IMG/VR virus record: IMGVR_UViG_2563366860_000007
Span: 1-40,364 of that record
Origin: a virus
Taxonomy: Duplodnaviria > Heunggongvirae > Uroviricota > Caudoviricetes
Length of the DNA stretch: 40,364 nucleotides
Direction: 5' to 3' (one strand)
The notes beneath the pieces were generated by a model. That model had not been told where the DNA came from. It was given only the letters and a program-made list of their open reading frames with translations, and ran no database searches. The position numbers and the translations under genes are program-made. Every line of letters begins with the position of its first letter. Position 1 is the first letter of the stretch. This document shows, one piece after another, positions 24,885 to 40,364 of this stretch.

Positions 24885-24886
24885 AA

Positions 24887-24952: not shown

Positions 24953-25333
24953 TTACTTTTTTAGCAGCCAGTCGTCCATCTCCAGTCTTACCCCCAGCAC
25001 AGACAAACATCCGTCAATAAACCCTTCGGCTATCTGCATCTCAATTCGTATTGCTTTTTCGCTTTTCTTTCTCGTCCTGGCTATCTGTCTTTTTGATATT
25101 CGCAACAAATAATGAGCAATGAGAAGCGAATACTCCTCAGGTTTTTTCTGCTTCAGACGAGCAAGACAGTTTTCAATGATAAGTCCGTCATCATCGCAGC
25201 AGGCCGGACGTGGTTTAGTGGCAGATGGTAAAAGTCCTTTGAATCCGGCAGCGATCGGAGAATAGTCCACCCCGGTGTTACCACTTGCAGCCCATGCCCC
25301 CCAGCGTTCAAGAACCATCTGAATATCACGCAT
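24953..25333 (-). CDS. Late antiterminator Q (QuuD-like family)
   Basis: ATG at 25331-25333 (MRDIQMVLERWGAWAA...AAGFKGL...RPACCDDD...) matches recalled DLP12 QuuD; the longer track start at 25348 is GTG. Confidence 0.8.
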   Translation of the reverse strand: MRDIQMVLERWGAWAASGNTGVDYSPIAAGFKGLLPSATKPRPACCDDDGLIIENCLARLKQKKPEEYSLLIAHYLLRISKRQIARTRKKSEKAIRIEMQIAEGFIDGCLSVLGVRLEMDDWLLKK

Positions 25334-25350
25334 CAACTTTCTCCACAAAA

Positions 25351-26340: not shown

Positions 26341-26349
26341 CGTAGAACC

Positions 26350-26865
26350 TCACAGCACAATCTGTTTCAGTTTCTGTACCGCTTTCCCCATATCCGCCAT
26401 AGCATCAACAAACTCATCAAATTTACGACTTGCCATTCCATACGCCTGGAGGATTTCCAGTTTCAGAGGATCCAGTTGCTTTTTAATTTCCGCACGATCA
26501 TTAAATTTCTTCTCTGCTTCTTCCGCAGCCCTGATCAGCTCCTCAGCATGCCTGCGTAATTCATCCGGAGTAACGGTCTTTTTAATCACAACGGGTTCCT
26601 CTGTTTTTACTGGTATTTCACTATTTACTGCCTGATGTCCAAATTTAGGATGATGTAACGTTGTAGTTCTTCCATCATTCGCAACGACCAGAAGTCCACT
26701 GTCGCGGATAATGCCAATGAGTATCTCCTTATCCCTTTTATTCAGTAGACTGTACGCCTGCACTTTCTGTGATATCTGGGTCAGTGTTGCGCCTTCCGGC
26801 ATTCGTTCAACAAAACGTTTAACCCTGGATAAAACTGGCTGCAGATGGGGTGGTGTAATTCTCAT
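26350..26865 (-). CDS. Hypothetical protein (possible N-terminal winged helix, C-terminal coiled coil)
   Basis: 171 aa ORF in the operon; no family recognised. Confidence 0.45.
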   Translation of the reverse strand: MRITPPHLQPVLSRVKRFVERMPEGATLTQISQKVQAYSLLNKRDKEILIGIIRDSGLLVVANDGRTTTLHHPKFGHQAVNSEIPVKTEEPVVIKKTVTPDELRRHAEELIRAAEEAEKKFNDRAEIKKQLDPLKLEILQAYGMASRKFDEFVDAMADMGKAVQKLKQIVL

Positions 26866-26880
26866 GCTCCACGCCTCCCA

Positions 26881-27678
26881 TCAGTGAACGGTATCGAGCA
26901 GCTTTAACAGCTCAGGAAATCGGGATTCGAAGAAATGCGGCTGCGTCTCGCGCGGATTTGCAGGACTGGTGATGTTCTTGCCGAACATGCAGCCTTTCGC
27001 GGTCAGCGACCAGAATTTTTTGATGTTGTTAATCGCGGTACGGCTGTATCGTTCGCGTTGTTCAACGATCCCCAGCTTCGCCATCTGGTGATATGCCTGA
27101 TTAGCCGTCAGGCGGATACCATACTGCTTCAGCAGTGCACTCAGTGACAGCGTGGGGCGGCTTGAGCCATCAGGCGCGTCAGCAGGAGCATCAATGGCAT
27201 AGCGCGGTGCCAGATTCGGTAAGCCAACAGCCTCCTGGAGTTTCTGACAGGCACCAAGCACTGAAGAGTTAGACAGGTTTAATTCCCGGCGCATAAAGTC
27301 CAGCAGAATCACACCAGCCTGCATCTTGTCAGCAGCCTGTCCGGATAATTTATCCGGTGCGCTGGTTACCGTATCGAAAGTACGGATCACCTTCAGATGG
27401 AATGACGGACTGATCCACATTGCATAGGCATACACCAGTTCTTTGCAGACATACGTCCCCTGGTTATTTCCGCCACGAATAACGTTAACAGGCTCTATAT
27501 TGACCGAGTTGCAAATCTGCAACTCGCTTATTAAACGTTCAGTTTGCTCATTGCGGAGCCAGAATGCAGGCTTATGCTTATCCAGAGAACCGGCAGCCCT
27601 GTGTAGATCGTTCAGGCTGTAACGCCCATAAGCATCACGACGAACTTCAATACCATCAATGACCATCAGATTATTCAT
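26881..27678 (-). CDS. KilA-N domain protein (possible antirepressor)
   Basis: N-terminus GIEVRRDAYGRYSLNDLHRAAG...KPAFWLRNEQTERLI resembles the KilA-N domain; C-terminal half unassigned. Confidence 0.7.
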   Translation of the reverse strand: MNNLMVIDGIEVRRDAYGRYSLNDLHRAAGSLDKHKPAFWLRNEQTERLISELQICNSVNIEPVNVIRGGNNQGTYVCKELVYAYAMWISPSFHLKVIRTFDTVTSAPDKLSGQAADKMQAGVILLDFMRRELNLSNSSVLGACQKLQEAVGLPNLAPRYAIDAPADAPDGSSRPTLSLSALLKQYGIRLTANQAYHQMAKLGIVEQRERYSRTAINNIKKFWSLTAKGCMFGKNITSPANPRETQPHFFESRFPELLKLLDTVH

Positions 27679-27697
27679 ACTTCGTTTCTCCTCTTAA

Positions 27698-28087
27698 TCA
27701 GGCGGCTGCACCCGCCGTTTTCTCGTACTTACTGATAGTGATCTCGACCTTCCCTTCCGGGATAACTGGTCCCCACTCCACCAGCATTCTTTTCACCTGG
27801 CTGTCGTCTTCCCACACACCCGCGTGGGTCAGGGCGTCAAACAGCGCCTTGTTATAGTTGTCCAGATCGCGGATCCGGTTATCCGGAGTAAACAACACGA
27901 TCTCCACTGAAGCAGGTGCCGACGTTGGTTTCGGCAGACGACGTAACTGCTCAACTATTGCTGCGCACGCCGCGCTCTGGAATTTTCGCCCCGCCGAGCT
28001 TATCAGGCTCTTACCAGCAAACGCCCCTTTGTTGGGGTGTCGCCAGTACGTGTTCACGCTGGGCGGAAAAGGCAGGATCAGCTTCAT
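27698..28087 (-). CDS. rusA: Holliday junction resolvase RusA
   Basis: MKLILPFPPSVNTYWRH...RIRDLDNYNKALFDALTHAGVWEDDSQV matches recalled RusA family; start overlaps the upstream gene stop. Confidence 0.9.
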   Translation of the reverse strand: MKLILPFPPSVNTYWRHPNKGAFAGKSLISSAGRKFQSAACAAIVEQLRRLPKPTSAPASVEIVLFTPDNRIRDLDNYNKALFDALTHAGVWEDDSQVKRMLVEWGPVIPEGKVEITISKYEKTAGAAA

Positions 28088-28410
28088 ACTTTCAGGTCCC
28101 TCTCATGTAACCAGTGGGTTGCACGCAGCCTTGCGTTTTCCTCACCGGCAAGCAGTGAGCGGATAATCCCGACCGCTTCGCTGTCGTCGTCCTTCACTGC
28201 GGTATGAAGCGTGATCCCCCGGGCCACACCACGCTTTATCGTGATGACGCCTTTTTTCTCCAGTGCGCGAAGATGCTCCACCGCTGCATTCACTGAACGG
28301 TATCCCAGCATGGTTGCCACCTCCTGATTGGTTGGCGGGAAGCCACGTTCTTTCTGATAAGAAATCAGCATATCCAGCACCTGCTGCTGGCATTGAGTTA
28401 ACGTCGTCAT
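28084..28410 (-). CDS. LexA-like DNA-binding domain protein (no peptidase domain)
   Basis: 108 aa; LTQCQQQVLDMLISYQKERGFPPTNQEVATMLGYRSVNAAVEHLRALEKKGVI resembles the LexA N-terminal winged HTH; no S24 Ser/Lys region. Confidence 0.6.
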   Translation of the reverse strand: MTTLTQCQQQVLDMLISYQKERGFPPTNQEVATMLGYRSVNAAVEHLRALEKKGVITIKRGVARGITLHTAVKDDDSEAVGIIRSLLAGEENARLRATHWLHERDLKV

Positions 28411-29060
28411 GCCGCCATCTCCCTGACCAGTTTTTCTGCCTGCTGGCGAACCTGCGCCAGAAAGGCCTCACCACATGCCTCAAGTTCATCGCGCCCGATG
28501 TAGCTGATTGCCGGTCCCTTCCAGGTCTTGTCGAAAACAGCAATAGCACCAGCGAAGAAAGCGCCTGTCGGTACCTGCTTCTCGTCTTTCGGGATAAACC
28601 AGGCAGGCAGTTCAAAACCAATACGCCCTCGAATAAAAGCAATATGGTCCGCATCTTCCGGCCACCACACTTCGCTGGTGGCAGCTTTGATCAGGAAAAC
28701 ATAGCGCCCCCCCTTATCACGCATGGCACTGGCATGTTTCATGATGTAACGCATGCCGGTGATGTATTGCCCCTCATGCTGACTGGCGCGGCTGTATGGG
28801 GGATTACCAAAGGCAGCCCCTTTAAGCTCCGCAAGACGTTCTGACCAGTCATGCGCCAGCGCGTTGTCTTCCGCCGTGTAATACGCAGCACATTTGGCGT
28901 TATCACCGTCAGTGAACAGATCCAGAACAAACGGGCCAAACAGGGTGTTAATTCCCCAGAAAATGTTGTCCGGCGTGCGCCACTGATCGCCCACTTCCTT
29001 CAGTTCATGGGCTGGTTTGTTCCGCAGTTCCACCAGCGCCTGGCAATATTTATTACTCAT
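28407..29060 (-). CDS. Phage DNA N6-adenine methyltransferase (Dam family)
   Basis: NPPY motif (GNPPYSR); ATG at 29058-29060 (MSNKYCQALVEL...) overlaps the upstream gene stop (TAATG). Confidence 0.8.
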   Translation of the reverse strand: MSNKYCQALVELRNKPAHELKEVGDQWRTPDNIFWGINTLFGPFVLDLFTDGDNAKCAAYYTAEDNALAHDWSERLAELKGAAFGNPPYSRASQHEGQYITGMRYIMKHASAMRDKGGRYVFLIKAATSEVWWPEDADHIAFIRGRIGFELPAWFIPKDEKQVPTGAFFAGAIAVFDKTWKGPAISYIGRDELEACGEAFLAQVRQQAEKLVREMAA

Positions 29061-29554
29061 TAAGCCCCCACGAAATTCCCTGACAGATACCACTCTTCAC
29101 CCGATGCAGCGCGCTTGCTGCTTTTCCGTAAGCACCGCTCACGACGTGCCAGAAAATTGTTTCGTTCTGGCTGGGAGTGGCTTTCACGGAATGCCGCCAT
29201 CCACACCGTTGCAGCACGACGGTATAAGCCCCTGGACTCCAGTTCTTCAGCCTGGCGGGTCAGGCACAAAATCACACGGGGATCGTTAGTGCCGACATAG
29301 AAATTGCGCACAGGTCTGGTTTCACGAACTGGTTGTGGTTCCGGATCCTGCGCTCTCTCAGTCAGGCGTGGGAAATGTCTGCGTGTATCTCCTTCACAAC
29401 GGTGAGCCACACGCCCACTCTGACGTAACTTGCTTGCTGACTGCAGAACGCGCTGCCGTGAGTAACCAGCAAAAGCATCCGCAATGTCTCCGGAAGTACA
29501 CCCCGGATGGGCTTCAATGAATTTCTGAACGTCATTCAAAAGACTCATGATCAC
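29060..29554 (-). CDS. Hypothetical protein, possibly PerC-like regulator; coupled to the replication initiator
   Basis: 164 aa; C-terminal LESRGLYRRAATVWMAAF resembles the recalled PerC-family core; start overlaps the O-like stop (ATGA); sits where lambda P would be but is not P-like. Confidence 0.35.
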   Translation of the reverse strand: MIMSLLNDVQKFIEAHPGCTSGDIADAFAGYSRQRVLQSASKLRQSGRVAHRCEGDTRRHFPRLTERAQDPEPQPVRETRPVRNFYVGTNDPRVILCLTRQAEELESRGLYRRAATVWMAAFRESHSQPERNNFLARRERCLRKSSKRAASGEEWYLSGNFVGA

Positions 29555-30543
29555 CCCCTGAATCCTGCCGGGATCTGGCTGTAGTCCACATTGTCGTAAC
29601 TGGCTTTGAAGTACGGGTCTTCGCGTTTTTCGGTGTACGTGCTTACGGACGGCGATAAGCGCAGGGAAAGCTCATCCCATTTTTCCCGCAGCTTCGACGG
29701 GCTGAGCACGTTACGGCACCAGAACGGATCGCGGCTGACGCGGCTGTACATCTCGCAGATTTGTTTGTGAGTACGACCATCCTGCACACACATCAGGCGA
29801 ATTTCGTTTGCCCATGCTGTCCAGTTCGGTTCTTTGGGACGAACCACCTCGCCGTCACATTCGGCGGCCTGCTCGTACAGGGCGATGATTTTTTTCCAGA
29901 GCCACTGTGCGCAGGTCAAATCATCCTGCGTTCCCCACTGGCGCTTTTTAGGGCTGAATACAACCGCATCAGGATGGCGAGTTAAAAACTCCTGTTCAGC
30001 CGTTTGCGTGTCCGGTTGCGAAGCGTCCGGACGAGAAGAGGTTTTATTCTCTGTAGTAATCTCTGTTGTATTCTCTGTAAGATCATTGGGCCATTTTGAC
30101 CCGATGACAGCGTGTCGTTTTGAACCAATGGATCGTGTCATTTTGCGCCCATCCATCAGGTCACTTTGACCCGATGGAGAAGTGCATTTTGACCTGATGG
30201 ATTCGTTCACTTTGACCTCTTCTAAAAGCTCACTTTCATAGTTGATCGTGTAGAAGTTGGTCATGTCACGCTTCGATTTATTGAGTTGCTCGCGACGCAA
30301 AACCCCAAGTGATTTCAGGCTTGCAAATGTGCGTTTCAGAGTGGACTCTGACCAGAACGGAAACTGCTCCAGCCACTGTTCTGTCGTGTTATAAACCCAG
30401 CGAATTCCGCCATGCTCAGTGCCTGAATTCGTTTCATTCAGCCAGTAATGAAGCTGCTGCAACACAATTGCCTCATTCAGACCAATACGGCATGCAAGAT
30501 CACGATTTATCACAATGGGCTGGGATGTCATTAACAGGCTCAT
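29551..30543 (-). CDS. Replication initiation protein (lambda O-like role) containing the origin iterons
   Basis: 330 aa; an iteron array lies inside the coding sequence as in lambda O; family membership not resolved. Confidence 0.6.
   Translation of the reverse strand: MSLLMTSQPIVINRDLACRIGLNEAIVLQQLHYWLNETNSGTEHGGIRWVYNTTEQWLEQFPFWSESTLKRTFASLKSLGVLRREQLNKSKRDMTNFYTINYESELLEEVKVNESIRSKCTSPSGQSDLMDGRKMTRSIGSKRHAVIGSKWPNDLTENTTEITTENKTSSRPDASQPDTQTAEQEFLTRHPDAVVFSPKKRQWGTQDDLTCAQWLWKKIIALYEQAAECDGEVVRPKEPNWTAWANEIRLMCVQDGRTHKQICEMYSRVSRDPFWCRNVLSPSKLREKWDELSLRLSPSVSTYTEKREDPYFKASYDNVDYSQIPAGFRG
30091..30215. repeat. Origin-of-replication iterons inside the initiator gene
   Basis: Five to six direct repeats of about 22-23 bp with core (C/T)ATTTTGACC(C/T)GATGG, for example CCATTTTGACCCGATGACAG, TCACTTTGACCCGATGGAGA, TGCATTTTGACCTGATGGATT. 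Confidence 0.65.
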
Positions 30544-30712
30544 GACCGACCTCTATTTCCCTGAATTTACGACGAAACTGTTCGAGCGGACTGAAGCATT
30601 CATGTTCATAGCCTTCACGGAGGTAGATAACCCGTTGTGTTTCCGGCTCCCAACGAATGACTCTGACGGGCACTCCGTAGTGATCTTTGAACCAGCGGTT
30701 AACTTGTCGCAA
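30500..30712 (-). CDS. Possible small protein (70 aa, TTG start) upstream of the initiator
   Basis: TTG start with GGAG 7 nt upstream; translation [40 protein letters not shown]... looks protein-like; overlaps ORF 30553..30891 in another frame. Confidence 0.35.
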
Positions 30713-30891
30713 AGGACTGTCTCCTTCTGCCGGTTGAAATCACCCACAGCCCACTCTGCAAAGCTGTGGGTTACAATTTCCCTGTCACCTGGTACATTCA
30801 CTGCATAGCAATACTCCACCTTCGCTTTTCCACCCGGCACAGGAAGCGCAATCAGTTGCGAGCGACGGTAGTGTGTTGTTAAACTGTTCAT
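30553..30891 (-). CDS. Hypothetical ORF coupled to the CII-like gene (112 aa)
   Basis: ATG overlaps the upstream stop (ATGA); N-terminal part plausible, C-terminal part low-complexity; contains the CCCACAGC...GCTGTGGG palindrome. Confidence 0.3.
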
Positions 30892-31529
30892 GCGTTAGTT
30901 TCTCCACAACCAGAAGCAATCGACGCCACGACGCCCGGAGCTGCACACTCGCGGGCGTTACTCTTTTCCGGCGCACAAAAAACACGAAATAACAGTGTTA
31001 AATGCTCCTGCCACTTCGCCATTACTTGGTAGCTGTTCTCTTCGATTTGCTCACGCTCAGCTTGGTCAATAACTCCATCAGCAGTTGCCTTGCGTAAGTA
31101 CTGGGAATGCTTGCCAATCCATTCTATTGACTCCATCAGCCGCTGATTAATGTCACCATTGTCAATGTCATCAATGACCACCAGCGGCACAAACACCCCA
31201 TTACTACGACGGGCTATTGCATCCGTTACATGCCTGGTACCACTGGCATCCTGTAAAACCATGGCCCACTCAAGTGGAAAAATTTGATCCCCACCGCTAC
31301 GCAGTCTGTTATGCAATTGATCTTTTGCTGGGGTGATATCATCAGATTTATACAAACCAAGAATTTCTGCTGCTTCCTCATAGCCATGAGGTAAATCAGC
31401 AATCGTTCTTCGTATTGCTGCCACCAGCCATGCTGGTTGCTTATCAACTTTCCATTCAGGTTCTTTACCCACGTTTAAGCCCTCATATCTGTGGTTTCTG
31501 TAAATCGATTTATCCATTAGATTTTTCAT
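30888..31529 (-). CDS. CII-like / YdaT-like regulatory protein (start uncertain)
   Basis: Second gene of the rightward early operon after the Cro-like gene; ATG candidates at 31529 and 31517, the track start at 31586 is GTG; family by position and weak recall. Confidence 0.45.
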
Positions 31530-31710: not shown

Positions 31711-31807
31711 ATGCCCTCCAAACTAAGTTTTATTAGATGTTAATTATCAATCTATCTTAGGTCAATAAAAACTAAGATTACTTAGTAATTAAAGAAATGG
31801 TGCTCCT
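31711..31807. promoter_or_regulatory. Divergent immunity-region promoters with operator sites (OR-like)
   Basis: 97-bp intergenic region between cro-like and cI starts with repeated half-sites ACTAAG / CTTAGT: perfect inverted repeat ACTAAGATTACTTAGT at 31771..31786, ACTAAG at 31722, CTTAG at 31756. Confidence 0.6.
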
Positions 31808-32434
31808 ATGGAAACGGTTGGTCAGCGTATAAAAGCTCTGAGAAGAGTTACCAGAACGTCCCAGAAAGAATTGGGTAAATTTTGTGGAGTAAGTGACGTT
31901 GCTGTGGGGTACTGGGAGAAAGACATCAATGTCCCTGGTGGGGAAGCACTTTCAAAATTAGCGAAGTTCTTCAATACGTCAATAGATTACATTCTTTATG
32001 GTGCGGAGTTTGAAGGCAAACTCGTCACAAACATGCGCAGAGTTCCTGTAATCTCGTGGGTTCAGGCTGGGCAGTTTACTGAGTGCAGGACAGCAGAAGT
32101 GTTTAGTGAAGTAGACAAGTGGGTAGATACATCATTAAAGATTGGTGATAACTCATTTGCATTGGAGGTTAAAGGCGACTCCATGACTAACCCTAACGGC
32201 CTCCCAACAATACCAGAAGGCGCAACAGTGATTGTAGATCCTGATGCAGAACCCCGGCATGGAAAAATAGTCATCGCTAGACTTGATGGAACAAACGAAG
32301 CCACAGTAAAAAAATTAGTTATCGATGGCCCTCAAAAGTTTTTAGTGCCATTAAATCCCCGGTACCCCAACATCCCGATCAATGGTAATTGCCTCATCAT
32401 TGGTGTAGTCAAAGGAGTTCAATACGAACTCTAG
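31808..32434 (+). CDS. cI: CI-type prophage repressor (HTH plus S24 LexA-like peptidase domain)
   Basis: N-terminal HTH (QRIKALRRVTRTSQKELGKFCGVSDVAVGYWE) and C-terminal autocleavage domain with GDSM Ser and downstream KK. Confidence 0.9.
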   Translation: METVGQRIKALRRVTRTSQKELGKFCGVSDVAVGYWEKDINVPGGEALSKLAKFFNTSIDYILYGAEFEGKLVTNMRRVPVISWVQAGQFTECRTAEVFSEVDKWVDTSLKIGDNSFALEVKGDSMTNPNGLPTIPEGATVIVDPDAEPRHGKIVIARLDGTNEATVKKLVIDGPQKFLVPLNPRYPNIPINGNCLIIGVVKGVQYEL

Positions 32435-32453
32435 CCCCCCCTTTTCTCTAACC

Positions 32454-32490
32454 AAAACACCGAACTAAGAAAAGTTTGGTGTTTTCTCTT
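32454..32490 (+). terminator. Hairpin plus T-rich tract downstream of cI, flanked by operator-like half-sites
   Basis: AAAACACC-N16-GGTGTTTT followed by CTCTT; ACTAAG half-sites at 32463 and 32500 (same motif as in OR). Confidence 0.35.
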
Positions 32491-32790
32491 GCCATTAAAA
32501 CTAAGTTAAGTTAGATTTTATATCAAAGATAACGAACAGGCAGGACGCCCACGAAGTAGCCGCCTGGGGCATATGAAGTCCAGGATGATTCGTTAGTACC
32601 AAAAAAGCGCCCTACCGGACGCTTCGCTCTTTAAAAATCAGTAACCCTCACTTTGGGCCTGGATCTGGTGGCCTGGGACGAGGTGGAATATGAAAAGGCT
32701 CTATTGGTCGACTCATTATCCAATCCTATTATGTCTCATTTCTTCGGTTTCGGTGGTTTCGGCTTCGGAGGTACATGTCCGTGAACTGGA

Positions 32791-33285
32791 TTATGCTTGT
32801 TGGTCATCATTAATATCCGTTAGTTCATTCTCTAGAGGTAGATCTCCCGCACACCAAGCTATAAATTTTTCTTTGGTTGTTAAATCGTACTTAGTTGGAA
32901 CACCAGCAAAAATACAGGCCCGAATGAAAGCCGCTCGTTCAAGTGATTTCCATGGATTACTATCAGTATCTTGGATTTTTAAATACCTAGCTTGCAACTG
33001 ATCTTCAGGAAGGGTATCAGACTCAATCAGCAGTCTTTTGTAATGCCTCGCTTGCTCTTTAGACATTCCAGCCTCTTGGCCAAACTGATAGACCAACTGA
33101 AGAACCGAAAGTACGGCAACAAACAAACCGAAAATAAATAAATTACTGTACGGGGCGAAAACTGAAAAACCGAGAACGATTAACATCAACGTTATTAATT
33201 TATCAATGCGAGTTAACAACGTGTAATTCATCTTCTCCAATACATAAGAGTAGTGAACATAAAATTTATAATCGTCTCTGGTCAT
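32791..33285 (-). CDS. SieB-like membrane protein (candidate superinfection exclusion / abortive infection), AT-rich moron
   Basis: 164 aa; two adjacent TM helices (LITLMLIVLGFSVFAPY, LFIFGLFVAVLSVLQLVY) then a charged soluble C-terminus; antisense to the flanking early-left genes, as recalled for sieB in the Rac prophage; visibly AT-rich. Confidence 0.5.
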   Translation of the reverse strand: MTRDDYKFYVHYSYVLEKMNYTLLTRIDKLITLMLIVLGFSVFAPYSNLFIFGLFVAVLSVLQLVYQFGQEAGMSKEQARHYKRLLIESDTLPEDQLQARYLKIQDTDSNPWKSLERAAFIRACIFAGVPTKYDLTTKEKFIAWCAGDLPLENELTDINDDQQA

Positions 33286-33670
33286 ATTAGTCTCAGTTTT
33301 CCTTGGGTGGTTTTGGAGGAACTGGAGGCTTTTGTCTTAACGGCACATGCCTCTCCTCATACTTATCTACACATAGATCCATATAAATCCTTATCGTTGT
33401 TGGGGAGGGTTACATAATAACCAAATCCTTGTTGTTGGGGAATAACCAGGTCCACCTCGCCTGATGTGGCTAAAAGCAGGCACATAACAGCTAAGTATTT
33501 TCAACCAGAGAGAATCCTTAGCGTTGTGGTGAATGCGCAGGCTGATGCGCGAAAGACATTGCAGCTATTGCGGAAAAGAGCTGTTCGGCGGGGCAATTAA
33601 ACGCCCGTGAGAGTCTGAAATAACCGCAAGCCGGAGATCAGCACCGGTCACCACAACAGCCACTGCTTTG

Positions 33671-33718
33671 GCGGTACCAGTTTGTACACTTGCTTCCGGC
33701 TGGTACCGCTCTTTTTAC
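33671..33718 (+). terminator. Strong rho-independent terminator upstream of the early-left gene cluster
   Basis: GCGGTACCAG-N19-CTGGTACCGC (10-bp perfect stem) followed by TCTTTTTAC on the plus strand. Confidence 0.5.
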
Positions 33719-33853
33719 AAAACAGAGAAGAGCATCACCGGACGACGGGCTCATAACCCAATCCATCCGGGCGGCTGCCACCGCAGGTGTTCTTCTCTGT
33801 TTTGTGGAGAAACCAACCGACCTTGCAGGGTCGATATGATGAGGAGCAGCAAA

Positions 33854-34216
33854 ATGGCTAGCGAACGCAGTACTGATGTGCAGGCATTTATCGGGGAGCT
33901 GGACGGCGGCGTATTTGAAACCAAAATCGGCGCAGTTCTCAGTGAAGTCGCTTCCGGTGTGATGAACACGAAAACCAAAGGTAAGGTCTCGCTCAACCTG
34001 GAAATCGAACCGTTTGATGAGAACCGTGTGAAAATCAAACACAAACTCTCATATGTTCGCCCGACTAACCGCGGGAAAATTTCTGAAGAAGACACCACCG
34101 AAACGCCGATGTATGTCAATCGCGGTGGTCGCCTGACTATTCTGCAGGAAGACCAGGGACAATTACTGACTCTTGCCGGTGAACCTGACGGAAAACTCCG
34201 CGCAGCAGGTCATTAA
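33854..34216 (+). CDS. YfdP-like hypothetical protein (120 aa)
   Basis: ATG at 33854 preceded by GAGGAG; size and following gene order match recalled CPS-53 yfdP-yfdQ-yfdR-yfdS; the track ORF start at 33668 runs through the terminator and is rejected. Confidence 0.5.
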   Translation: MASERSTDVQAFIGELDGGVFETKIGAVLSEVASGVMNTKTKGKVSLNLEIEPFDENRVKIKHKLSYVRPTNRGKISEEDTTETPMYVNRGGRLTILQEDQGQLLTLAGEPDGKLRAAGH

Positions 34217-34281
34217 TATCGTTCTTAATTAACTGATTATTTATCTCATCACTGAATATCTTAATATAGTGAGGACTTATT

Positions 34282-35106
34282 ATGTCTCAGAACTTAGACG
34301 CAACCGCAATTAATCAAATCCATGCCCTTATTTCTGCTCAGGGTGTTAATGAAATTATCAGTAAGATTGGTGCCGATGCTGTGGCATTGCCTGAGAATTT
34401 CCGCATTCATGATCTGGAAAAATTTAATTTAAATCGCTTCCGTTTCCGTGGTGCGCTTTCCACTGCCAGCATCGATGACTTTACCCGTTATTCTAAAGAT
34501 CTTGCAGATGAAGGCACCCGCTGCTTTATCGATGCTGATAATATGCGTGCCGTCAGTGTGCTTAACCTGGGTACTATTGATGAACCAGGTCACGCAGATA
34601 ACACCGCCACTCTCAAACTGAAAAAGACAGCACCGTTCTCTGCCCTGTTGTCTGTTAACGGCGAGCGTAACTCCCAGAAATCACTGGCAGAATGGATTGA
34701 AGACTGGGCCGACTACCTTGTGGGCTTTGATGCTAATGGTGACGCCATTCAGGCAACAAAAGCGGCTGCGGCAATCCGTAAAATCACGATTGAAGCAAAC
34801 CAGACCGCTGATTTTGAAGATAATGACTTCAGCGGCAAACGCTCCCTGATGGAATCTGTCGAAGCGAAGACCAAAGACATTATGCCAGTGGCATTTGAAT
34901 TTAAATGCGTTCCGTTTGAAGGTCTGAAAGAACGTCCGTTTAAATTACGCCTCAGCATTATCACTGGCGATCGTCCTGTACTGGTTCTGCGCATTATTCA
35001 GCTGGAAGCGGTGCAGGAAGATATGGCTAACGAATTTCGTGATCTGCTTGTTGAGAAATTCAAAGACAGCAAAGTAGAAACCTTTATTGGTACTTTCACC
35101 GCCTGA
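34282..35106 (+). CDS. YfdQ-like protein (DUF2303 family)
   Basis: 274 aa, same length and position as recalled CPS-53 YfdQ. Confidence 0.6.
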
Positions 35107-35233
35107 TTTCATTACTGCAAATGCCCCTGCGGGGGCATTTATGGAAACGTAATTAACTCAATAATCACCGGATGGTGAGGGCTTCCTTTTACCCAAATTC
35201 AGCGCGGTGCAGCGCATATACGTGGAGAACAAA

Positions 35234-35770
35234 ATGTCATTTATTAAAACTTTTTCCGGGAAGCATTTTTATTATGACAAGATAAATAAAGATGACATCG
35301 TTATTAACGATATCGCGGTTTCCCTTTCAAATATCTGTCGCTTTGCCGGTCATCTTTCTCACTTCTACAGCGTCGCCCAACATGCGGTGCTTTGCAGCCA
35401 GCTGGTGCCGCAGGAATTTGCTTTTGAAGCGTTAATGCATGATGCAACAGAAGCGTATTGCCAGGACATCCCAGCTCCACTGAAACGCCTTCTTCCTGAC
35501 TATAAACGGATGGAAGAAAAAATAGACGCCGTAATCCGTGAGAAATACGGGTTACCTCCTGTTATGAGCACGCCAGTGAAATATGCCGATCTCATTATGC
35601 TGGCAACCGAACGTCGCGATCTCGGGCTTGATGATGGCTCTTTCTGGCCTGTACTGGAAGGTATCCCGGCGACAGAGATGTTCAAAGTTATTCCACTGTC
35701 ACCAGGCCATGCCTACGGGATGTTTATGGAACGTTTTAACGAGTTATCGGAGTTACGCAAATGCGCATGA
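35234..35770 (+). CDS. yfdR: HD-domain 5'-deoxynucleotidase (YfdR-like)
   Basis: ATG at 35234 (MSFIKTFSGKHFYYDKINKDD...) with GGAGA upstream; HD motifs VAQHAV and LMHDATEAY; near-identity to recalled E. coli YfdR. Confidence 0.8.
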   Translation: MSFIKTFSGKHFYYDKINKDDIVINDIAVSLSNICRFAGHLSHFYSVAQHAVLCSQLVPQEFAFEALMHDATEAYCQDIPAPLKRLLPDYKRMEEKIDAVIREKYGLPPVMSTPVKYADLIMLATERRDLGLDDGSFWPVLEGIPATEMFKVIPLSPGHAYGMFMERFNELSELRKCA

Positions 35771-36123
35771 ATGTTTTCGAAATGGAAGGGTTTCTTCGCG
35801 GGAAATGTGTACCACGAGATCTGAAAGTGAATGAAACAAATGCTGAGTACCTGGTACGTAAATTCGATGCGCTTGAAGCTAAATGTGCGGCACTGGAAAA
35901 CAAAATAATACCAGTGTCAGCTGAACTGCCGCCAGCAAATGAAAGTGTTCTGTTATTTGATGCTAACGGAGAAGGCTGGCTAATTGGCTGGCGTTCTCTC
36001 TGGTACACCTGGGGACAAAAAGAAACCGGAGAATGGCTGTGGACATTTCAGGTCGGGGACCTTGAAAACGTCAATATCACTCACTGGGCAGTAATGCCGA
36101 AAGCACCGAAGAATAAAAAATGA
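35761..36123 (+). CDS. DUF551 protein (YfdS-like)
   Basis: 120 aa; C-terminal W-rich motif (GWLIGWRSLWYTWGQ...THWAVMPKAP) characteristic of DUF551. Confidence 0.6.
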   Translation: MRMNVFEMEGFLRGKCVPRDLKVNETNAEYLVRKFDALEAKCAALENKIIPVSAELPPANESVLLFDANGEGWLIGWRSLWYTWGQKETGEWLWTFQVGDLENVNITHWAVMPKAPKNKK

Positions 36124-36323
36124 GCGTGATAAAAACTCATACAGGAATTGTTATCACCCGAGACGGTCCGCAGGTAAAAAAACTGCACCAGACAAAGCGG
36201 ATGTGGGTCGTCGGAAAAAACGAGTTTTACCACAAAGAAACCGGACGCCGCCACTTTGCAGAAAATACTCGCCGCCGACTGCTGATCGATACCATCAAGC
36301 CTATCGAGGTGAAGCATGTTTAA
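36120..36323 (+). CDS. Hypothetical protein (67 aa)
   Basis: Start overlaps the upstream stop; basic small protein; no family recognised. Confidence 0.4.
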   Translation: MSVIKTHTGIVITRDGPQVKKLHQTKRMWVVGKNEFYHKETGRRHFAENTRRRLLIDTIKPIEVKHV

Positions 36324-36555
36324 ACAGAACGAAAAATCTATCGCTCAAATTGCTGAGTATATCCCGCGTGCGTGCCGGGATATGCAGTTGCAGGAAGCCA
36401 AAGCACGCCTGGAGAAAAAAATTGCGCTCTATATCGATGACGGCTGTGATGCCGCCGTTCTTAACGCGGCGTTCGCGCCAGCTCTTAACAGTCATACGCG
36501 AAAGTCTTTTTTTTCGTGCATCGCAGCGCAGATCCGTAAAGGAGGCAACCAGTGA
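36316..36555 (+). CDS. Hypothetical protein (79 aa)
   Basis: Translationally coupled with both neighbours (overlapping start and stop). Confidence 0.4.
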   Translation: MFKQNEKSIAQIAEYIPRACRDMQLQEAKARLEKKIALYIDDGCDAAVLNAAFAPALNSHTRKSFFSCIAAQIRKGGNQ

Positions 36556-37151
36556 GCAACATTAACTATCAGGTACTGCGTGAAAAGGCAGAGAAAGCAA
36601 CTAAAGGAAGCTACATCGTAGGGCATACATCTGTTAACCAACACGGCAATTTAACAGGAGTTTTTGTTTGTCAAAAATGGAAAGGAGAACCCGGTGGCGT
36701 AATTGCAGAATGTCACGTTAACTGCCTGGTTGAAACAGATGCTCAGGCTTATGCAAACGCTGAATTCATAGCAGAGGCTAACCCGGCTACCGTGCTGGCA
36801 CTGCTGGATGAACAGGAAAGAAACCAGCAATACATCAAACGCCGCGACCAGGAGAACGAGGATATTGCGCTAACGGTAGGGAAGCTGCGCGTTGAGCTTG
36901 AGGAGACAAAATCAAAACTCAACGAGCAGCGCGAGTATTACGAGGGAGTTATCTCTGATGGGTGCAAGCGTATTGCTGAACTGGAAGCGCGGGAAGTTCA
37001 ATTACCGACTCGCTACGACCTTCGATATGGACACCCGATAAATGCAGATGAGCGACATGTCATGATACCTAAAGAAAATGGCAGTTGGCTTTACCTGATT
37101 GACCTAGAACACGCATTACGCGTCGCTGGCATTCGCATCAAAGGAGAGTGA
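36552..37151 (+). CDS. Ead/Ea22-like protein
   Basis: 199 aa; N-terminus MSNINYQVLREKAEKATKGSY... and central coiled coil resemble recalled Ea22-family proteins of lambdoid early-left regions. Confidence 0.55.
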   Translation: MSNINYQVLREKAEKATKGSYIVGHTSVNQHGNLTGVFVCQKWKGEPGGVIAECHVNCLVETDAQAYANAEFIAEANPATVLALLDEQERNQQYIKRRDQENEDIALTVGKLRVELEETKSKLNEQREYYEGVISDGCKRIAELEAREVQLPTRYDLRYGHPINADERHVMIPKENGSWLYLIDLEHALRVAGIRIKGE

Positions 37152-37152
37152 G

Positions 37153-37344
37153 ATGGACGGACAAATATCAATTGTTCGACCGGGAGCATGTGACGATCGC
37201 GAGATACGAATGATTATTCGTCTGGCGAGGGGGAAAACAATAACTGCTCTCATTACTCCAGAAAATCTCGCATTATCATTAACAGGAAAGTCAGACCTGC
37301 CAGTAGAGCTAAAGCTGCGAAATGTTGAGATTAAGGTGAAATAG
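37153..37344 (+). CDS. Hypothetical protein (63 aa)
   Basis: Small ORF tightly packed between neighbours. Confidence 0.4.
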   Translation: MDGQISIVRPGACDDREIRMIIRLARGKTITALITPENLALSLTGKSDLPVELKLRNVEIKVK

Positions 37345-37346
37345 CT

Positions 37347-38273
37347 ATGACCACTATTACCAAAGAACGTATCGAATTATTCATTAAAAATCCGCTTGAT
37401 AACGGACTTACCCGTGGCGAACAAATGGAACTGGCACGAATTGCTCTGGCATCGCTGGAAGCAGAGCCGATAGGTTTCCGTTGCAGGCGCAATGATAACC
37501 TTGGTGATTGGAGTTACGTATATCATCGAGAGCCAGATGATTTTGAGCGCAAACATTTAGTGATAGAGGGCATTTACGCCGCCCCTCCAGCACCGGTAGT
37601 GCCTGAAGAAGCAACTCCGGAAAACGTAGAAATGCTCTCTGGCTATGTTTCAACGTACAAATTAACCGATAGCGAGCGCGATATTGCTGCCGAAATATGG
37701 AACGCCTGCCGCGCCGCCATGCTTCAGTCCGGAAACTTTCGGGAAAACAAGAATTCGTCAACCAATAATTTTCGGGAAATCGCGGAAACGTCAACCAACT
37801 ATCCGGCAATTCCTAGTGAGGTGTTGTCCGCAATCCTGAAGGTTGCCAGGATTCGTGCCGATTTCGATGATTTTGACGGTGACAGGCGAGGTATCGGTGA
37901 TTGTCTGGATGAGGCTGAGCAAGAGCTTATCGTTACCATTAACAAATATGCCAGTCAGTTGGCAGCAGAACCTATAGCGCCTAATGACGTTCGAGAGCAG
38001 ACAGCCATTCCACAAGTTCCGGTAACTCCGGATGGTTGGATAAGCTGTAGTGAGCGAATGCCAGAAATGGGAGAGCGACAATGCTATGTGTTAGCTGCTG
38101 ACTTTAAAAACAACTACCCACCAAGCATCCCCAACACTCAGGTCGGCGTATATGGCGACTGGTTTAATGATGGCAAGCCCACTTGGGATGACGGTGGTGG
38201 CGAAGACCTGTATCTCAAGGAGGTAACCCACTGGATGCCGCTGCCAGAACCGCCGCAGGAGGTGAATCAATGA
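37347..38273 (+). CDS. Hypothetical protein with C-terminal DUF551-like domain
   Basis: 308 aa; C-terminus DGWISCSERMPE...GVYGDWF...THWMPLPEPP parallels the YfdS-like W-rich motif. Confidence 0.55.
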   Translation: MTTITKERIELFIKNPLDNGLTRGEQMELARIALASLEAEPIGFRCRRNDNLGDWSYVYHREPDDFERKHLVIEGIYAAPPAPVVPEEATPENVEMLSGYVSTYKLTDSERDIAAEIWNACRAAMLQSGNFRENKNSSTNNFREIAETSTNYPAIPSEVLSAILKVARIRADFDDFDGDRRGIGDCLDEAEQELIVTINKYASQLAAEPIAPNDVREQTAIPQVPVTPDGWISCSERMPEMGERQCYVLAADFKNNYPPSIPNTQVGVYGDWFNDGKPTWDDGGGEDLYLKEVTHWMPLPEPPQEVNQ

Positions 38274-38353
38274 GCTGGCGTGATGCAATCGTAACTCTGG
38301 GGGTGGTATTCGCAGCAGCGTTTGTTGTGTTCTCGATTTGTCGATGGGGATAA
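38270..38353 (+). CDS. Possible 27-aa hydrophobic peptide
   Basis: ATG overlaps the upstream stop (ATGA) with AGGAGGTG 7 nt upstream; translation MSWRDAIVTLGVVFAAAFVVFSICRWG; too short for the ORF track. Confidence 0.4.
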   Translation: MSWRDAIVTLGVVFAAAFVVFSICRWG

Positions 38354-38357
38354 CCAC

Positions 38358-38600
38358 ATGTTCGCTTTGATTCAACGCAGTCAGATATACACGGACAGAG
38401 CCGGATACCCCGTGGTGATTACTCGCATCACTGAGCACTCAGTGTTCTTTCGACGGATGGACGGACGATCCGGGCGGGTACGCATTGGTGAGTTAAACTG
38501 CCTGTTCGAACATATTGACCACCAGGAGTACCGCAAAATTCTGGCAGAAACAGAGCAGGAAGCTCATCTGAAAAAATTACGGGCCATGAAAAGGAAGTAA
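38358..38600 (+). CDS. Hypothetical protein (80 aa)
   Basis: ATG at 38358 (MFALIQRSQIYTDRAGYPVVITR...) preceded by GGGGA; the longer track start is less likely. Confidence 0.45.
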   Translation: MFALIQRSQIYTDRAGYPVVITRITEHSVFFRRMDGRSGRVRIGELNCLFEHIDHQEYRKILAETEQEAHLKKLRAMKRK

Positions 38601-38603
38601 AGA

Positions 38604-38750
38604 ATGAATAAAGCATTTGAACGATGGGGCCACCAGCGTTACGGCAATCGCTATGACCTGACACGAGATGTTGACGGTTTCTACTGTCGTGAAATTGTGA
38701 AACGAATGTTTGAAGTGTGGTGCCACTGCCGTGGGCTGAGTGTTGTGTGA
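38604..38750 (+). CDS. Possible small protein (48 aa)
   Basis: ATG at 38604 preceded by AAGGAAG; translation MNKAFERWGHQRYGNRYDLTRDVDGFYCREIVKRMFEVWCHCRGLSVV. Confidence 0.4.
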   Translation: MNKAFERWGHQRYGNRYDLTRDVDGFYCREIVKRMFEVWCHCRGLSVV

Positions 38751-38758
38751 GGTAATGC

Positions 38759-38995
38759 ATGGGCAATGTGATTCAACTGGCTCCCAATGAATGGGTTTGT
38801 GAAAGCGTTCTAATCGCAATTACCGGGCTCAAACCAGGCACAATTCTTCGGGCCCGGAAAGAATGCTGGATGGTTGGAAGAGAGTATATTCACGTATCAC
38901 CAGACGGTAATCCAAAGCCTTCCAGTGAATGTATGTATAACAGAAAAGCAATAGATGCCTGGGTCGCTTCAATGAAAAACAAACAACCTGGGTGA
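38759..38995 (+). CDS. xis: Excisionase-like protein (Xis)
   Basis: 78 aa immediately upstream of int; EWVCESVLIAITGLKPGTILRARKECWMVGREYIHVSPDG resembles recalled excisionase-like proteins of E. coli prophages; GAGGT upstream. Confidence 0.6.
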   Translation: MGNVIQLAPNEWVCESVLIAITGLKPGTILRARKECWMVGREYIHVSPDGNPKPSSECMYNRKAIDAWVASMKNKQPG

Positions 38996-39050
38996 TTTAA
39001 TGCCATGAAGTATGTAAGCTCGTATCGCTCTTGGGCGTCTGGAGGTATCA

Positions 39051-40364
39051 ATGGATAAAGTCAAATATCCAACAGGCGTCGAAAACCACGGCGGCACATT
39101 ACGCATCTGGTTTAATTTTAAAGGTAAACGTGTCAGGGAAAATCTTGGTGTCCCTGACACTGCCAAGAACAGGAAGATCGCCGGGGAACTGCGGACATCG
39201 GTATGTTTTGCCATCCGCACAGGAAGCTTTGATTATGCCGCACAGTTCCCTGACTCCCCCAACCTTCAGGCTTTTGGGGTAAGTAAAAAAGAAATTACGG
39301 TGAAGGAACTTGAAGAAAAGTGGCTGGATCTGAAACGAATGGAAATCTCTGCAAATGCATTCAATCGCTATGAATCCGTTGCAAGAACGATGGTTCCGAA
39401 AATTGGAGGCAGCAGACTGGTGTCATCGGTAACCAAAGAGGAATTGCTGTATATCAGGAAAGATTTACTGACCGGGTATCAGAATTCAACGAAAAACAAA
39501 GCAGCAGCAAAAGGACGGAGCGTCGTTACTGTAAATTATTACATGACAACTATCGCTGGAATGTTTCAGTTTGCTGCAGATCACGGTTACTTAGAAGCAA
39601 ATCCCTTCCAGGGAATTAAGCCTCTTAAAAGAGCCAGGGCAGAGCCAGATCCGCTAACTCGTGACGAATTTATTCGCCTGATAGATGCTTGCCGACATCA
39701 GCAGACGAAAAACCTGTGGTCATTGGCTGTGTACACAGGAATGCGTCACGGTGAACTGGTCTCCCTGGCCTGGGAAGATATCGATCTGAAAGCAGGAACT
39801 ATTACTATCAGGCGCAATTATACGAAACTCAGTGAGTTCACTCTACCTAAAACTGAAGCAAGTACAAACAGGGTTGTGCATCTTATCCAGCCCGCTATCA
39901 GTGTCCTGAAAAATCAGGCTGAAATGACAAGACTGGGTAAGCAGCACCACATCAAGGTTCAACTACGTGAATATGGGCGCTCAGTGAATCATGAATGTAC
40001 TTTCGTATTTAACCCCCAGGTGGTTAGAAAAAGCAAACAGGTCGGTTTTATCTACAAGGTAGATTCTATTGGCGACTCATGGGAAACAGCCGTTAAGCGT
40101 GCGGGCATCAGGCACCGGAAAGCATACCAGTCACGACACACTTATGCGTGCTGGTCATTATCTGCCGGAGCAAACCCAAGCTTCATTGCCAGCCAGATGG
40201 GCCATGCAAGTGCCCAGATGGTATTCAATGTATACGGAGCATGGATGACTGACAGTAATGCAGAACAGATCGCAATGCTGAATCAGAAGCTGGCAGATTA
40301 TGTCCCAATGATGTCCCATGGTCACCAAAGTGACACAAGAGACTTATTAAAATCAGTAGGTTAG
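39051..40364 (+). CDS. int: Tyrosine site-specific integrase
   Basis: 437 aa with arm-binding-type N-terminus and catalytic region (conserved Arg, HxxR in RHTYACW, C-terminal Tyr region); stop codon at the window edge, so attL lies outside. Confidence 0.9.
   Translation: MDKVKYPTGVENHGGTLRIWFNFKGKRVRENLGVPDTAKNRKIAGELRTSVCFAIRTGSFDYAAQFPDSPNLQAFGVSKKEITVKELEEKWLDLKRMEISANAFNRYESVARTMVPKIGGSRLVSSVTKEELLYIRKDLLTGYQNSTKNKAAAKGRSVVTVNYYMTTIAGMFQFAADHGYLEANPFQGIKPLKRARAEPDPLTRDEFIRLIDACRHQQTKNLWSLAVYTGMRHGELVSLAWEDIDLKAGTITIRRNYTKLSEFTLPKTEASTNRVVHLIQPAISVLKNQAEMTRLGKQHHIKVQLREYGRSVNHECTFVFNPQVVRKSKQVGFIYKVDSIGDSWETAVKRAGIRHRKAYQSRHTYACWSLSAGANPSFIASQMGHASAQMVFNVYGAWMTDSNAEQIAMLNQKLADYVPMMSHGHQSDTRDLLKSVG

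Follow-up and report, generated by a model that had tools for sequence, protein, structure and literature searches.

The segment at 33854-38750 (+) of the window, by which we mean the whole 40,364-nt stretch that was analysed, is an ordinary, already annotated early-left operon of a lambda-like E. coli prophage of the SfV/mEp460/LLS type. Its gene block is not new, the core being a near-identical copy of the yfdP-yfdQ-yfdR-yfdS cassette of the K-12 prophage CPS-53. As a whole, the segment is probably best explained as a delayed-early leftward operon belonging to a lambdoid prophage of this type, apparently intact, in which the cassette would restrain host initiation.

Composition of the gene block and its relatives

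Twelve intact, closely packed genes fill the segment, bounded by the repressor and by xis/int. The operon runs on into the latter two, past the range covered by the first-pass annotation, in the following order:

33854..34216, +, yfdP, 120 aa; 99% identity to K-12 YfdP; phrog_204, E 1e-49
34282..35106, +, yfdQ, 274 aa, DUF2303 (Pfam, 311.9 bits); 100% identity to K-12 YfdQ
35234..35770, +, yfdR, 178 aa, HD-domain phosphohydrolase; 98% identity to K-12 YfdR; phrog_318, E 4e-110; top PDB hit the HD protein Atu1052 (2gz4), E 2e-13
35761..36123, +, yfdS, 120 aa, C-terminal DUF551; 98% identity to K-12 YfdS over 117 aa; phrog_583, E 2e-81
36120..36323, +, 67-aa basic protein; phrog_1226, E 2e-42; annotated in relatives
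36316..36555, +, 79-aa protein; phrog_1344, E 1e-52
36552..37151, +, Ead/Ea22-like protein, 199 aa, GTG start; PF13935, 139.8 bits
37153..37344, +, 63-aa protein; phrog_1222, E 2e-39; the mEp460 equivalent is gp28
37347..38273, +, 308-aa acidic protein (pI 4.5) with C-terminal DUF551 (72.1 bits, residues 230-304)
38270..38353, +, gene for a hydrophobic membrane-type peptide of 27 aa with a single helix; start overlapping the preceding stop codon (ATGA)
38358..38600, +, DUF4222 protein, 80 aa; PF13973, 48.5 bits; phrog_285
38604..38750, +, 48-aa protein; phrog_3871, E 1e-33; WP_001043968.1 in RefSeq relatives
38759..38995, +, xis (excisionase); PF06806, 112 bits; phrog_539
39051..40364, +, int, tyrosine integrase, 437 aa; a listed ORF and the last gene of the operon

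All of the ORFs named in the first-pass annotation, including the Ea22-like gene and the second DUF551 gene, are in place on the + strand, yet its list had missed three more small genes (67 aa, 79 aa and the 80-aa DUF4222 gene). The tight packing it described was borne out: junctions range from -10 to +8 nt, overlapping or nearly abutting, except at yfdP/yfdQ (65 nt) and yfdQ/yfdR (127 nt); the start of the 67-aa ORF and the yfdS stop overlap by 4 nt, and a ribosome-binding site lies upstream of each gene. The small ORFs of 27, 48 and 63 aa are likewise real (PHROG matches for 48 and 63 aa, frame conservation for 27 aa) and translationally coupled.

Calling the first four genes merely "YfdP/Q/R/S-like" recognized the block but proved too weak a description, given protein identities of 99, 100, 98 and 98% to the CPS-53 (KpLE1) proteins. 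The anticipated synteny holds in full, with the same four genes in the same order, spacing and overlaps, and DNA homology to K-12 spanning exactly 33835-36111 at 98.4% identity. Beyond this point CPS-53, which is located at argW, goes on with yfdT, ypdJ and torI (its xis), whereas the cassette analysed here lies within an apparently complete prophage, with eight other accessory genes and another xis/int pair after it; the trace of yfdT is limited to a weak similarity at the N terminus of the 308-aa protein (first 41 aa; one pairwise comparison, 36% identity, E 0.014). Also unlike CPS-53, the near-identical relative is inserted in yecE (DUF72), and in NZ_CP159118 the homologous site-specific integrase abuts the DUF72 (yecE) gene.

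The cassette is widespread: of 5426 complete E. coli genomes, 2446 contain the 2.28-kb yfdPQRS block at a coverage of 80% or more, and it is found in 46 phage records, including SfV orf29-32, and also in Stx phages. SfV (orf28-32) carries yfdPQRS at 97% identity, but there the yfd genes make up the entire early-left operon. In mEp460 (gp27-gp35) the likeness (97.5% over 33517-36601) extends from yfdP into the beginning of the Ea22-like gene, whose middle and end are not in common, and resumes at 96.4% over 37147-37367, which takes in the 63-aa ORF and the opening codons of the gene for the 308-aa DUF551 protein; mEp460 has an additional exonuclease gene ahead of xis. Both phages share with the window a right arm made of a single O-like gene followed by PerC-like, Dam, LexA-like, RusA and KilA-N genes, but differ from it in their immunity regions and integrases.

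The Ea22-like, DUF551 and DUF4222 genes and the ORFs of 27, 48, 63, 67 and 79 aa are typical mosaic "ea"/exo-xis-type accessory genes. As in the lambda exo-xis region (ea22, orf60a, orf61, orf63, ea8.5), these are early, small, coupled ORFs adjoining xis, pL-transcribed in lambda, and the N-terminal and coiled-coil part of Ea22 (lambda residues 1-118) is 61% identical to translated window 36702-37037. The C-terminal domain of lambda Ea22 differs, finding no match in the window, and the other lambda ORFs have no homologue there; in lambda, moreover, exo, bet and gam adjoin the region, whereas this phage lacks them. Among these genes, the 27-aa ORF, preceded by a GGAGGTGA ribosome-binding site, is to judge from its sequence a conserved membrane-type peptide gene, a detail that is new here. 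Although as many as 29 of 81 nt differ in the diverged prophages L004-L008, its start, stop, length and hydrophobicity are kept there, as are the peptide ends, M[SN]W[PR][DE]A...S[IL][CF]RWG. It had no match in PHROG or PADLOC and is unannotated in the closest RefSeq relatives, while RefSeq annotates a 40-aa version in NZ_CP058571.

Candidate promoter and structured leader

Two features upstream of yfdP bear on how the block may be expressed:

32489..32521, +, candidate pL/OL from a promoter scan (TTGCCA, 17 nt, TAGATT) with an operator-like repeat lying across it
33708..33808, +, hairpin of the untranslated leader RNA, long and stable, 45 nt ahead of yfdP; 25-nt arms 84% complementary

The candidate pL/OL, which is new here, comes just after cI, which stops at 32434, and after a terminator-like hairpin (32454-32485), and a mosaic breakpoint relative to L004 falls at 32529. 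Its 31-nt repeat has a 77% identical counterpart between cro and cI (31712-31742), an intergenic region where two further copies of the AAACTAAG..TTAG motif occur, consistent with a putative promoter role for 32489-32521. The scan returned 8 promoter-like sites against 11.8 in shuffled sequence, i.e., fewer than by shuffling; it detected no recognizable promoters belonging to the block genes inside the early operon, nor did we find a convincing internal terminator on its + strand. The leader (33700-33860) folds with an MFE of -65.3 kcal/mol (z-score -5.4 versus shuffles); its hairpin had no match in Rfam and is absent from K-12 CPS-53, whose homology begins at 33835. Upon induction or infection, transcription would most likely start at a repressor-controlled promoter just downstream of cI (~32489-32517) and then pass through the long structured leader and the entire gene string to xis and int.

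Recombination without a Rec module

The block occupies the position of the lambda Red genes, and the observation that it contains no recombinase genes holds for homologous-recombination modules. A tblastn search of the entire window matched none of lambda exo, bet, gam, kil, cIII and N, and the scanned ORFs contained no Pfam recombinase domain (the ten largest of the block, the 48-aa ORF, xis and eight ORFs elsewhere), while the site-specific genes xis and int lie directly downstream. The ORF at 27698-28087 (-, nin region) falls in a collinear segment 96.5% identical to L004, where a RusA resolvase is annotated, and by its position may be the counterpart of that gene.

Such an absence defines a described class of lambdoid phage and is not an oddity of this locus (PMC12315714). 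The window holds 14 Chi sites against 1.7 expected, 11 on the - strand (the conventional top strand) and 3 on the other; 8 of the 11 fall at the right end of the virion map (22.7-31.4 kb), and another - strand site lies inside the 48-aa ORF (38630-38637). The missing Rec module and the many Chi sites together place the prophage, as far as sequence features go, in the LLS class, published as "no Rec module, high Chi" (PMC12315714). Like LLS, it lacks a Rec module, a RecBCD inhibitor and an N homologue, clusters its Chi sites toward the right end with most in the putatively active orientation, has a yfdP/yfdQ/HD-gene cluster in the early-left operon, and has an O-like gene as its only replication gene. 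LLS differs in having 23 Chi sites, and its gp37-39 are reported as 76-90% identical to ST64B proteins. The strong, oriented enrichment argues that recombination is delegated to host RecBCD, on which this phage, having no module of its own, would putatively rely.

Readings of the yfdPQRS cassette

The first-pass annotation took the genes around the HD enzyme to be functionally undescribed, which is poorly supported: yfdQRS/T have been linked to inhibition of oriC, and Ea22 is described as pro-lysogenic, its homologues tuning the lysis-lysogeny decision (PMC10834534). In K-12, YfdR binds domain I of DnaA, the initiator of host replication, via Phe46, multicopy yfdQ and yfdR with either yfdS or yfdT inhibit oriC initiation in vivo, and extracts oversupplied with YfdQRST inhibit initiation in vitro, yfdP being dispensable (PMC4776307). 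Since the window proteins are 98-100% identical to those of CPS-53, these experiments apply to them directly, and the window's yfdR corresponds to the gene for the DnaA-binding protein of that prophage. DnaA blocking is the only tested activity of the yfdPQRS genes (in the K-12 copy), and restraint of host initiation parallels reports for lambda P and for the exo-xis region, the latter linked to the lysis-lysogeny decision as well as to inhibited replication of host DNA. Holding back host chromosome initiation is the most likely early-phase role that we infer for the cassette. As YfdR has kept its HD active site intact, it may also act, secondarily, as a weak deoxynucleotidase. Against this, the phenotype was obtained only from multicopy plasmids, deletion of yfdQRST had no effect, and the authors allowed for an overexpression artefact (PMC4776307). 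The DnaA and initiation evidence comes entirely from work on the K-12 copy, none of it from phage infection.

The view of the first-pass annotation, that YfdR is mainly a 5'-deoxynucleotidase remodelling early dNMP/dNTP pools among unrelated passenger genes, is a weaker reading and appears unlikely. In its favour, RefSeq and PHROGs call the family a 5'-deoxynucleotidase or deoxyribonucleoside 5'-monophosphate phosphatase, the metal and catalytic residues are conserved in a predicted HD fold shared with the housekeeping E. coli 5'-deoxynucleotidase YfbR (H69-D70, E73 and D78 align with YfbR H68-D69, E72 and D77, within an HD...E...D...P.P.K motif), and multicopy yfdQRS/T raises resistance to hydroxyurea, a phenotype connected to dNTP supply. 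[quoted passage not shown] Furthermore, dNMP hydrolysis would work against phage replication. The hydroxyurea phenotype matches that of a diaA null mutant, has its explanation in reduced initiation, and requires yfdQ and yfdS/T besides yfdR.

The other readings are less probable still. [quoted passage not shown] In Xylella phage Usme the pair shares an operon with an ERF recombinase, an exonuclease and an SSB, phage ArgO145 reportedly combines the cluster with a full Rec module, not all Rec-less phages have the cluster, and the oriented Chi enrichment favours RecBCD. Slightly more doubtful is the proposal that these are lysogenic-conversion, defence or anti-defence genes ("morons") protecting the lysogen or countering host immunity: deletion of CPS-53, or of yfdQ or yfdS, raises H2O2 or acid sensitivity, YfdQ overproduction set off production of another resident phage in BW25113, and the region is rich in small, fast-evolving ORFs, the 27-aa peptide among them; but a PADLOC search matched none of the twelve block proteins, the genes lie within a repressed early operon with no recognizable promoters of their own, and their orientation and coupling are of the lytic-cycle early-gene type. 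That the block is an inert, functionless remnant is hardly credible, being already largely refuted by conservation. The K-12 copy does persist in a defective prophage, where its deletion has no growth phenotype, and relative NZ_CP159118 has a frameshift (in the 79-aa ORF) and a truncation in two block genes. Here, however, all twelve ORFs are intact in a prophage with full head, tail, lysis, replication and immunity modules, YfdQ keeps 70 invariant columns across genera at 57-75% identity, the YfdP-YfdQ pairing is held across bacterial orders, and plaque-forming phages, SfV and mEp460 among them, carry the cassette.

Restraint of host initiation does not account for every part of the cassette. 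YfdP-YfdQ is an old gene pair, found beside an ERF/exonuclease/SSB module in Xylella/Xanthomonas phages (a detail that is new here), and since it occurs there without YfdR, it must serve some separate function not covered by the DnaA model. YfdP homologues bear the precomputed Pfam family PF27127, and its AF2 model (pLDDT 63) has one helix, three strands and a C-terminal tail that is conserved yet disordered. The DUF551 match of YfdS scores 21.0 bits against a cut-off of 22.

An early-left operon built around the yfdPQRS cassette

The window holds a complete lambda-like prophage in inverted orientation, its - strand carrying the tail, head, terminase, lysis, Q, nin and replication genes, and its + strand the repressor, the early-left genes, xis and int. 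A prophage that occupies yecE (DUF72) in the E. coli genome NZ_CP159118 is collinear with the one here at 93-99.8% identity and differs from it by a few swapped modules, the immunity region among them. A 171-aa ORF (26350-26865, - strand; phrog_2539) was seen in a segment that the closest relative lacks; beyond phrog_2539 it had only chance-level PADLOC hits to Csm2 (E 0.002). Within the early-left part, twelve + strand genes lie head to tail between positions 33854 and 38750, listed here together with the repressor, xis and int.

Genes of the repressor, early-left and integration regions
31808-32434, +, repressor (cI)
33854-34216, +, yfdP
34282-35106, +, yfdQ (DUF2303)
35234-35770, +, yfdR (HD domain)
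35761-36123, +, yfdS (DUF551)
36120-36323, +, 67-aa ORF
36316-36555, +, 79-aa ORF
36552-37151, +, Ead/Ea22-like gene
37153-37344, +, 63-aa ORF (full-length PHROG match, E 2e-39; annotated in relatives)
37347-38273, +, 308-aa DUF551 protein
38270-38353, +, 27-aa ORF
38358-38600, +, DUF4222 gene
38604-38750, +, 48-aa ORF (full-length PHROG match, E 1e-33; annotated in relatives)
38759-38995, +, xis
39051-40364, +, int

Neighboring genes of the block overlap by at most 10 nt or are separated by at most 8 nt, with the exception of the yfdP/yfdQ (65 nt) and yfdQ/yfdR (127 nt) gaps, and a purine-rich, Shine-Dalgarno-like stretch precedes most of the genes. The first-pass annotation had described this block as a YfdPQRS-like early-left module with an Ea22-like protein, a second DUF551 protein and several small coupled ORFs, and the coordinates and profile matches bear this description out; its interpretation of the block proved partly right.

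The synteny with the cryptic prophage CPS-53 of E. coli K-12, which it had proposed to check, is present. YfdP, YfdQ, YfdR and YfdS are 99, 100, 98 and 98% identical in amino acid sequence to their K-12 counterparts over their full length (YfdS, 117 of 120 aa), the gene order is the same, and the DNA is collinear from 33835 to 36111 at 98.4% identity. Since this homology starts 19 nt 5' of yfdP and ends a few codons short of the end of yfdS, yfdPQRS is a discrete mosaic cassette. Coverage of the cassette reaches at least 80% in 2446 of the 5426 complete E. coli genomes, where a genome with any match holds as many as seven, and likewise in 46 phage records, among them SfV (orf29-32), mEp460, 1720a-02 and Stx2c-converting phages. 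Parts of the whole 5.5-kb region were found in 4400 of the 5426 genomes, yet at least 80% of the present combination in only 16, so that the module order 3' of yfdS is one shuffle among many. What lies here is a familiar accessory operon of the early-left region, standard and very common, with the CPS-53/SfV yfdPQRS cassette at its core.

Reported inhibition of DnaA, the HD domain of YfdR and the YfdP-YfdQ pair

The genes of the block had been taken as functionally undescribed apart from the HD-domain enzyme, a view that does not hold for the core cassette, for which an activity on DnaA and oriC has been published in K-12. [quoted passage not shown] In multicopy, this set inhibits initiation at oriC in several genetic backgrounds; an oversupply of YfdQRST in protein extracts likewise inhibits it in vitro, and purified YfdR binds domain I of DnaA, a binding that depends on Phe46 of DnaA (PMC4776307). 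The authors drew a parallel with lambda P, also a DnaA inhibitor, and mentioned the SfV homologues, and conceded that overexpression may mislead; deletion of the genes gave no phenotype (PMC4776307). Because the proteins encoded here are virtually the same, inhibition of DnaA at oriC has the strongest support of any activity for the cassette, and by near-identity it would carry over from K-12; what the cassette does in the phage cycle we infer.

The earlier proposal that the HD enzyme remodels dNMP pools is a possible but weaker reading. In its favor, YfdR keeps the HD catalytic motif (H50, H69-D70, E73, D78 and D118), with the H...HD...D metal ligands conserved: H69-D70, E73 and D78 align with the motifs of YfbR and Atu1052, placing YfdR in the HD-domain metal-dependent phosphohydrolase superfamily, and H50 (VAQH) and D118 (KYAD) are aligned with Atu1052 (KKAD for the latter), the equivalence of D118 to KQAD of YfbR being read from the sequences only, as MAFFT left that part unaligned. 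[quoted passage not shown]

YfdQ is a full DUF2303 protein (PF10065; 311.9 bits against a cut-off of 26.6, profile positions 2-269 of 269), and a homologue of it has been solved (PDB 9o7m, 36 chains of one sequence), for which our literature search found no publication. The 9o7m protein belongs to Xanthomonas and Xylella phages of ~43 kb and shares 98.8% identity with one from phage MET23-P3. In Xylella phage Usme, a YfdP homologue lies directly 5' of the YfdQ homologue (hhalign probability 99.2%, E 2e-19), and further along the operon (locus L010, 5490-11017) come a 470-aa protein weakly matching DUF1351 and genes for an ERF recombinase, an exonuclease and an SSB. From these arrangements, we conclude that YfdP-YfdQ is an old, conserved two-gene unit independent of YfdR. 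Its coexistence with a full recombination module in Usme argues against the pair being such a module itself. When the YfdQ model was searched against BFVD, on the idea that YfdQ might be a recombinase or SSB in disguise, every hit was another DUF2303 protein, and the model showed no link to any annealing-protein fold. The predicted model of YfdP (pLDDT 63) was too poor for a fold search, and a sequence search of the PDB with YfdP gave nothing significant. We also considered 9o7m as a YfdP-YfdQ complex and set this aside, the YfdP homologue of the same phage group being without a PDB match. YfdP-YfdQ is a widespread phage pair without an annotated fold relative and with one solved structure. 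In a few database proteins (P0010, P0073 and P0160), YfdQ (PF10065) and YfdP (PF27127) domains occur in one short polypeptide; these are 95-100% identical to the E. coli genes and resemble fusions created by a frameshift or deletion more than natural ones.

A Rec-less, Chi-rich prophage with an O-only replication module

None of lambda exo, bet, gam, kil, cIII or N gave a tblastn match anywhere in the window, and in the block ORFs that were scanned, Pfam and PHROGs yielded no recombinase, SSB or Gam/Abc2 (RecBCD-inhibitor) domain, in agreement with the earlier statement that recombinase genes are missing. This situation has been published: Zheng et al. reported that 22% of lambdoid phages have no Rec module, and that in almost every one of them Chi sites are numerous and oriented so as to activate RecBCD that enters at the right end of the DNA (PMC12315714). 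Their LLS class takes in lambdoid phages without a Rec module whose Chi sites number 8 or more in the active orientation and no more than 6 in the inactive one (PMC12315714). The window contains 14 Chi sites (GCTGGTGG; positions 131-38637) against 1.72 expected from shuffles. Eleven lie on the - strand, the conventional top strand, and three on the + strand, i.e., 11 active and 3 inactive sites, which places the prophage within the class by its sequence. Eight of the 11 - strand sites fall at 22.7-31.4 kb (22751-31428), across the lysis, Q, nin and replication genes at the right end of the virion map. The prophage shares further traits of the class, namely a single O-like replication gene, no helicase loader, no N homologue and the yfdP/Q/R cluster, which Zheng et al. 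name explicitly and judge unlikely to be a recombinase (PMC12315714). It is, in short, of the Rec-less, Chi-rich LLS type.

Replication genes
29551-30543, -, O-like/DnaD-like gene (phrog_391, E 1e-101)
29060-29554 and 28407-29093, PerC-like gene, then Dam methylase gene, directly after the O-like gene

No P-type loader, helicase or primase was found in the replication module. The same O-only layout occurs in CPS-53 (yfdO-yfdN-yfdM), SfV and mEp460, and DnaB loading by O-only lambdoid replicons is reported as not yet understood (PMC12315714); the cassette is a candidate player in this step. We raise, as an idea that is probably wrong, that yfdPQRS is a stand-in for the host takeover by lambda P in O-only, Rec-less, N-less lambdoid phages. 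YfdR would occupy Phe46 of DnaA, the docking site of DnaB and DiaA, oriC would be shut down, and DnaB-DnaC would be freed for the phage origin, with YfdP-YfdQ forming a large assembly that would assist the YfdR step. The idea fits the joint occurrence of the cassette and an O-only right arm (O, PerC-like, Dam, RusA) in four of four elements (the window, CPS-53, SfV and mEp460), and the 36 chains in 9o7m fit a large YfdQ assembly. Yet these four elements are close relatives and their co-occurrence may reflect shared descent, which is why we hold the idea to be improbable. The discovery value of the region is small, its genes being annotated in thousands of genomes and both the core activity and the Rec-less class being published; as an apparently intact prophage, the window would lend itself well to work on yfdPQRS, DnaB loading and the YfdP-YfdQ pair.

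Remaining genes of the block, the leader and its surroundings

The Ead/Ea22-like protein matches PF13935 (139.8 bits, cut-off 27). It is 61% identical to residues 1-118 of lambda Ea22, comprising the N-terminal and coiled-coil part, but the C-terminal domain of lambda Ea22 (~102-182) has no match in the window, the tblastn alignment ending at lambda residue 118. Ea22 homologues have been described as pro-lysogenic (PMC10834534). DUF551, known from the literature as a portable C-terminal domain on several different N-terminal modules, occurs here on two proteins: the 308-aa acidic protein (PF04448, 72.1 bits, cut-off 22), whose first 41 residues are weakly similar to YfdT, and YfdS, which at 21.0 bits falls just short of the cut-off and is still listed as DUF551 in the literature. 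The two do not qualify as paralogues, as they share the Pfam DUF551 profile alone and no pairwise BLASTP similarity. A defence or anti-defence role for the block was likewise considered and dropped, as none of the 12 block proteins matched a defence-system family of PADLOC-DB v2 (threshold E <= 0.01).

The 27-, 48- and 63-aa ORFs noticed in the first-pass annotation are real genes, two of them belonging to PHROG families and the 27-aa one being kept across relatives; the small ORFs of the block showed no homology to lambda orf60a, orf61, orf63 or ea8.5. The 27-aa ORF is without annotation in the closest relatives, and RefSeq gives a longer form of 40 aa in one genome. We compared it among five related prophages, some with 29 differences among the 81 coding nucleotides. 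In all five, the ORF is exactly 27 codons long, and both the ATGA overlap with the upstream stop and the GGAGGTGA ribosome-binding site are kept. The peptide ends are conserved (M[SN]W[PR][DE]A...S[IL][CF]RWG), the core is uniformly hydrophobic and both other frames contain stops. From this pattern, we regard the ORF as a real gene for a small peptide, probably of membrane type. At position 4 the window encodes Arg where five of five relatives encode Pro, a single-nucleotide difference (CGT vs CCT).

Just 3' of the cI stop and a terminator-like hairpin (32454-32485), there is a promoter-like site (TTGCCA, 17 nt, TAGATT; 32489-32517). It is overlapped, up to 32521, by a copy of an operator-like repeat from the cro/cI intergenic region (31712-31792), a mosaic junction with a relative of different immunity follows right after it, at 32529, and no N-like gene was found 3' of it. 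These features point to 32489-32521 as the probable pL/OL. A transcript from this pL would cross a 164-aa gene on the - strand in antisense and then a ~570-nt leader with short repeats and a hairpin before reaching yfdP. The leader carries direct repeats (33386-33527; AATCCTT.T.GTTGT and AATAACC..ATCC, three copies each) and a very stable hairpin of ~100 nt (33708-33808; z -5.4), and parts of it occur, unannotated or patchily annotated, in 2893 of 5426 E. coli genomes. A known structured RNA in the block or leader was looked for in Rfam, with no match at E <= 1 over 32400-39100.

The 164-aa gene itself (32791-33285, - strand), between cI and yfdP, is placed and oriented like lambda sieB. Its product has a long, hydrophobic, membrane-like central stretch and matches phrog_6315, with no Pfam or PADLOC match. 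At the Rfam gathering threshold, the only matches in the whole window, outside the block and leader, were to three tRNA genes and, over its full length, to the sRNA family STnc100 (133 bits); they lie together at 23957-24482 on the - strand, between Q and the lysis genes.
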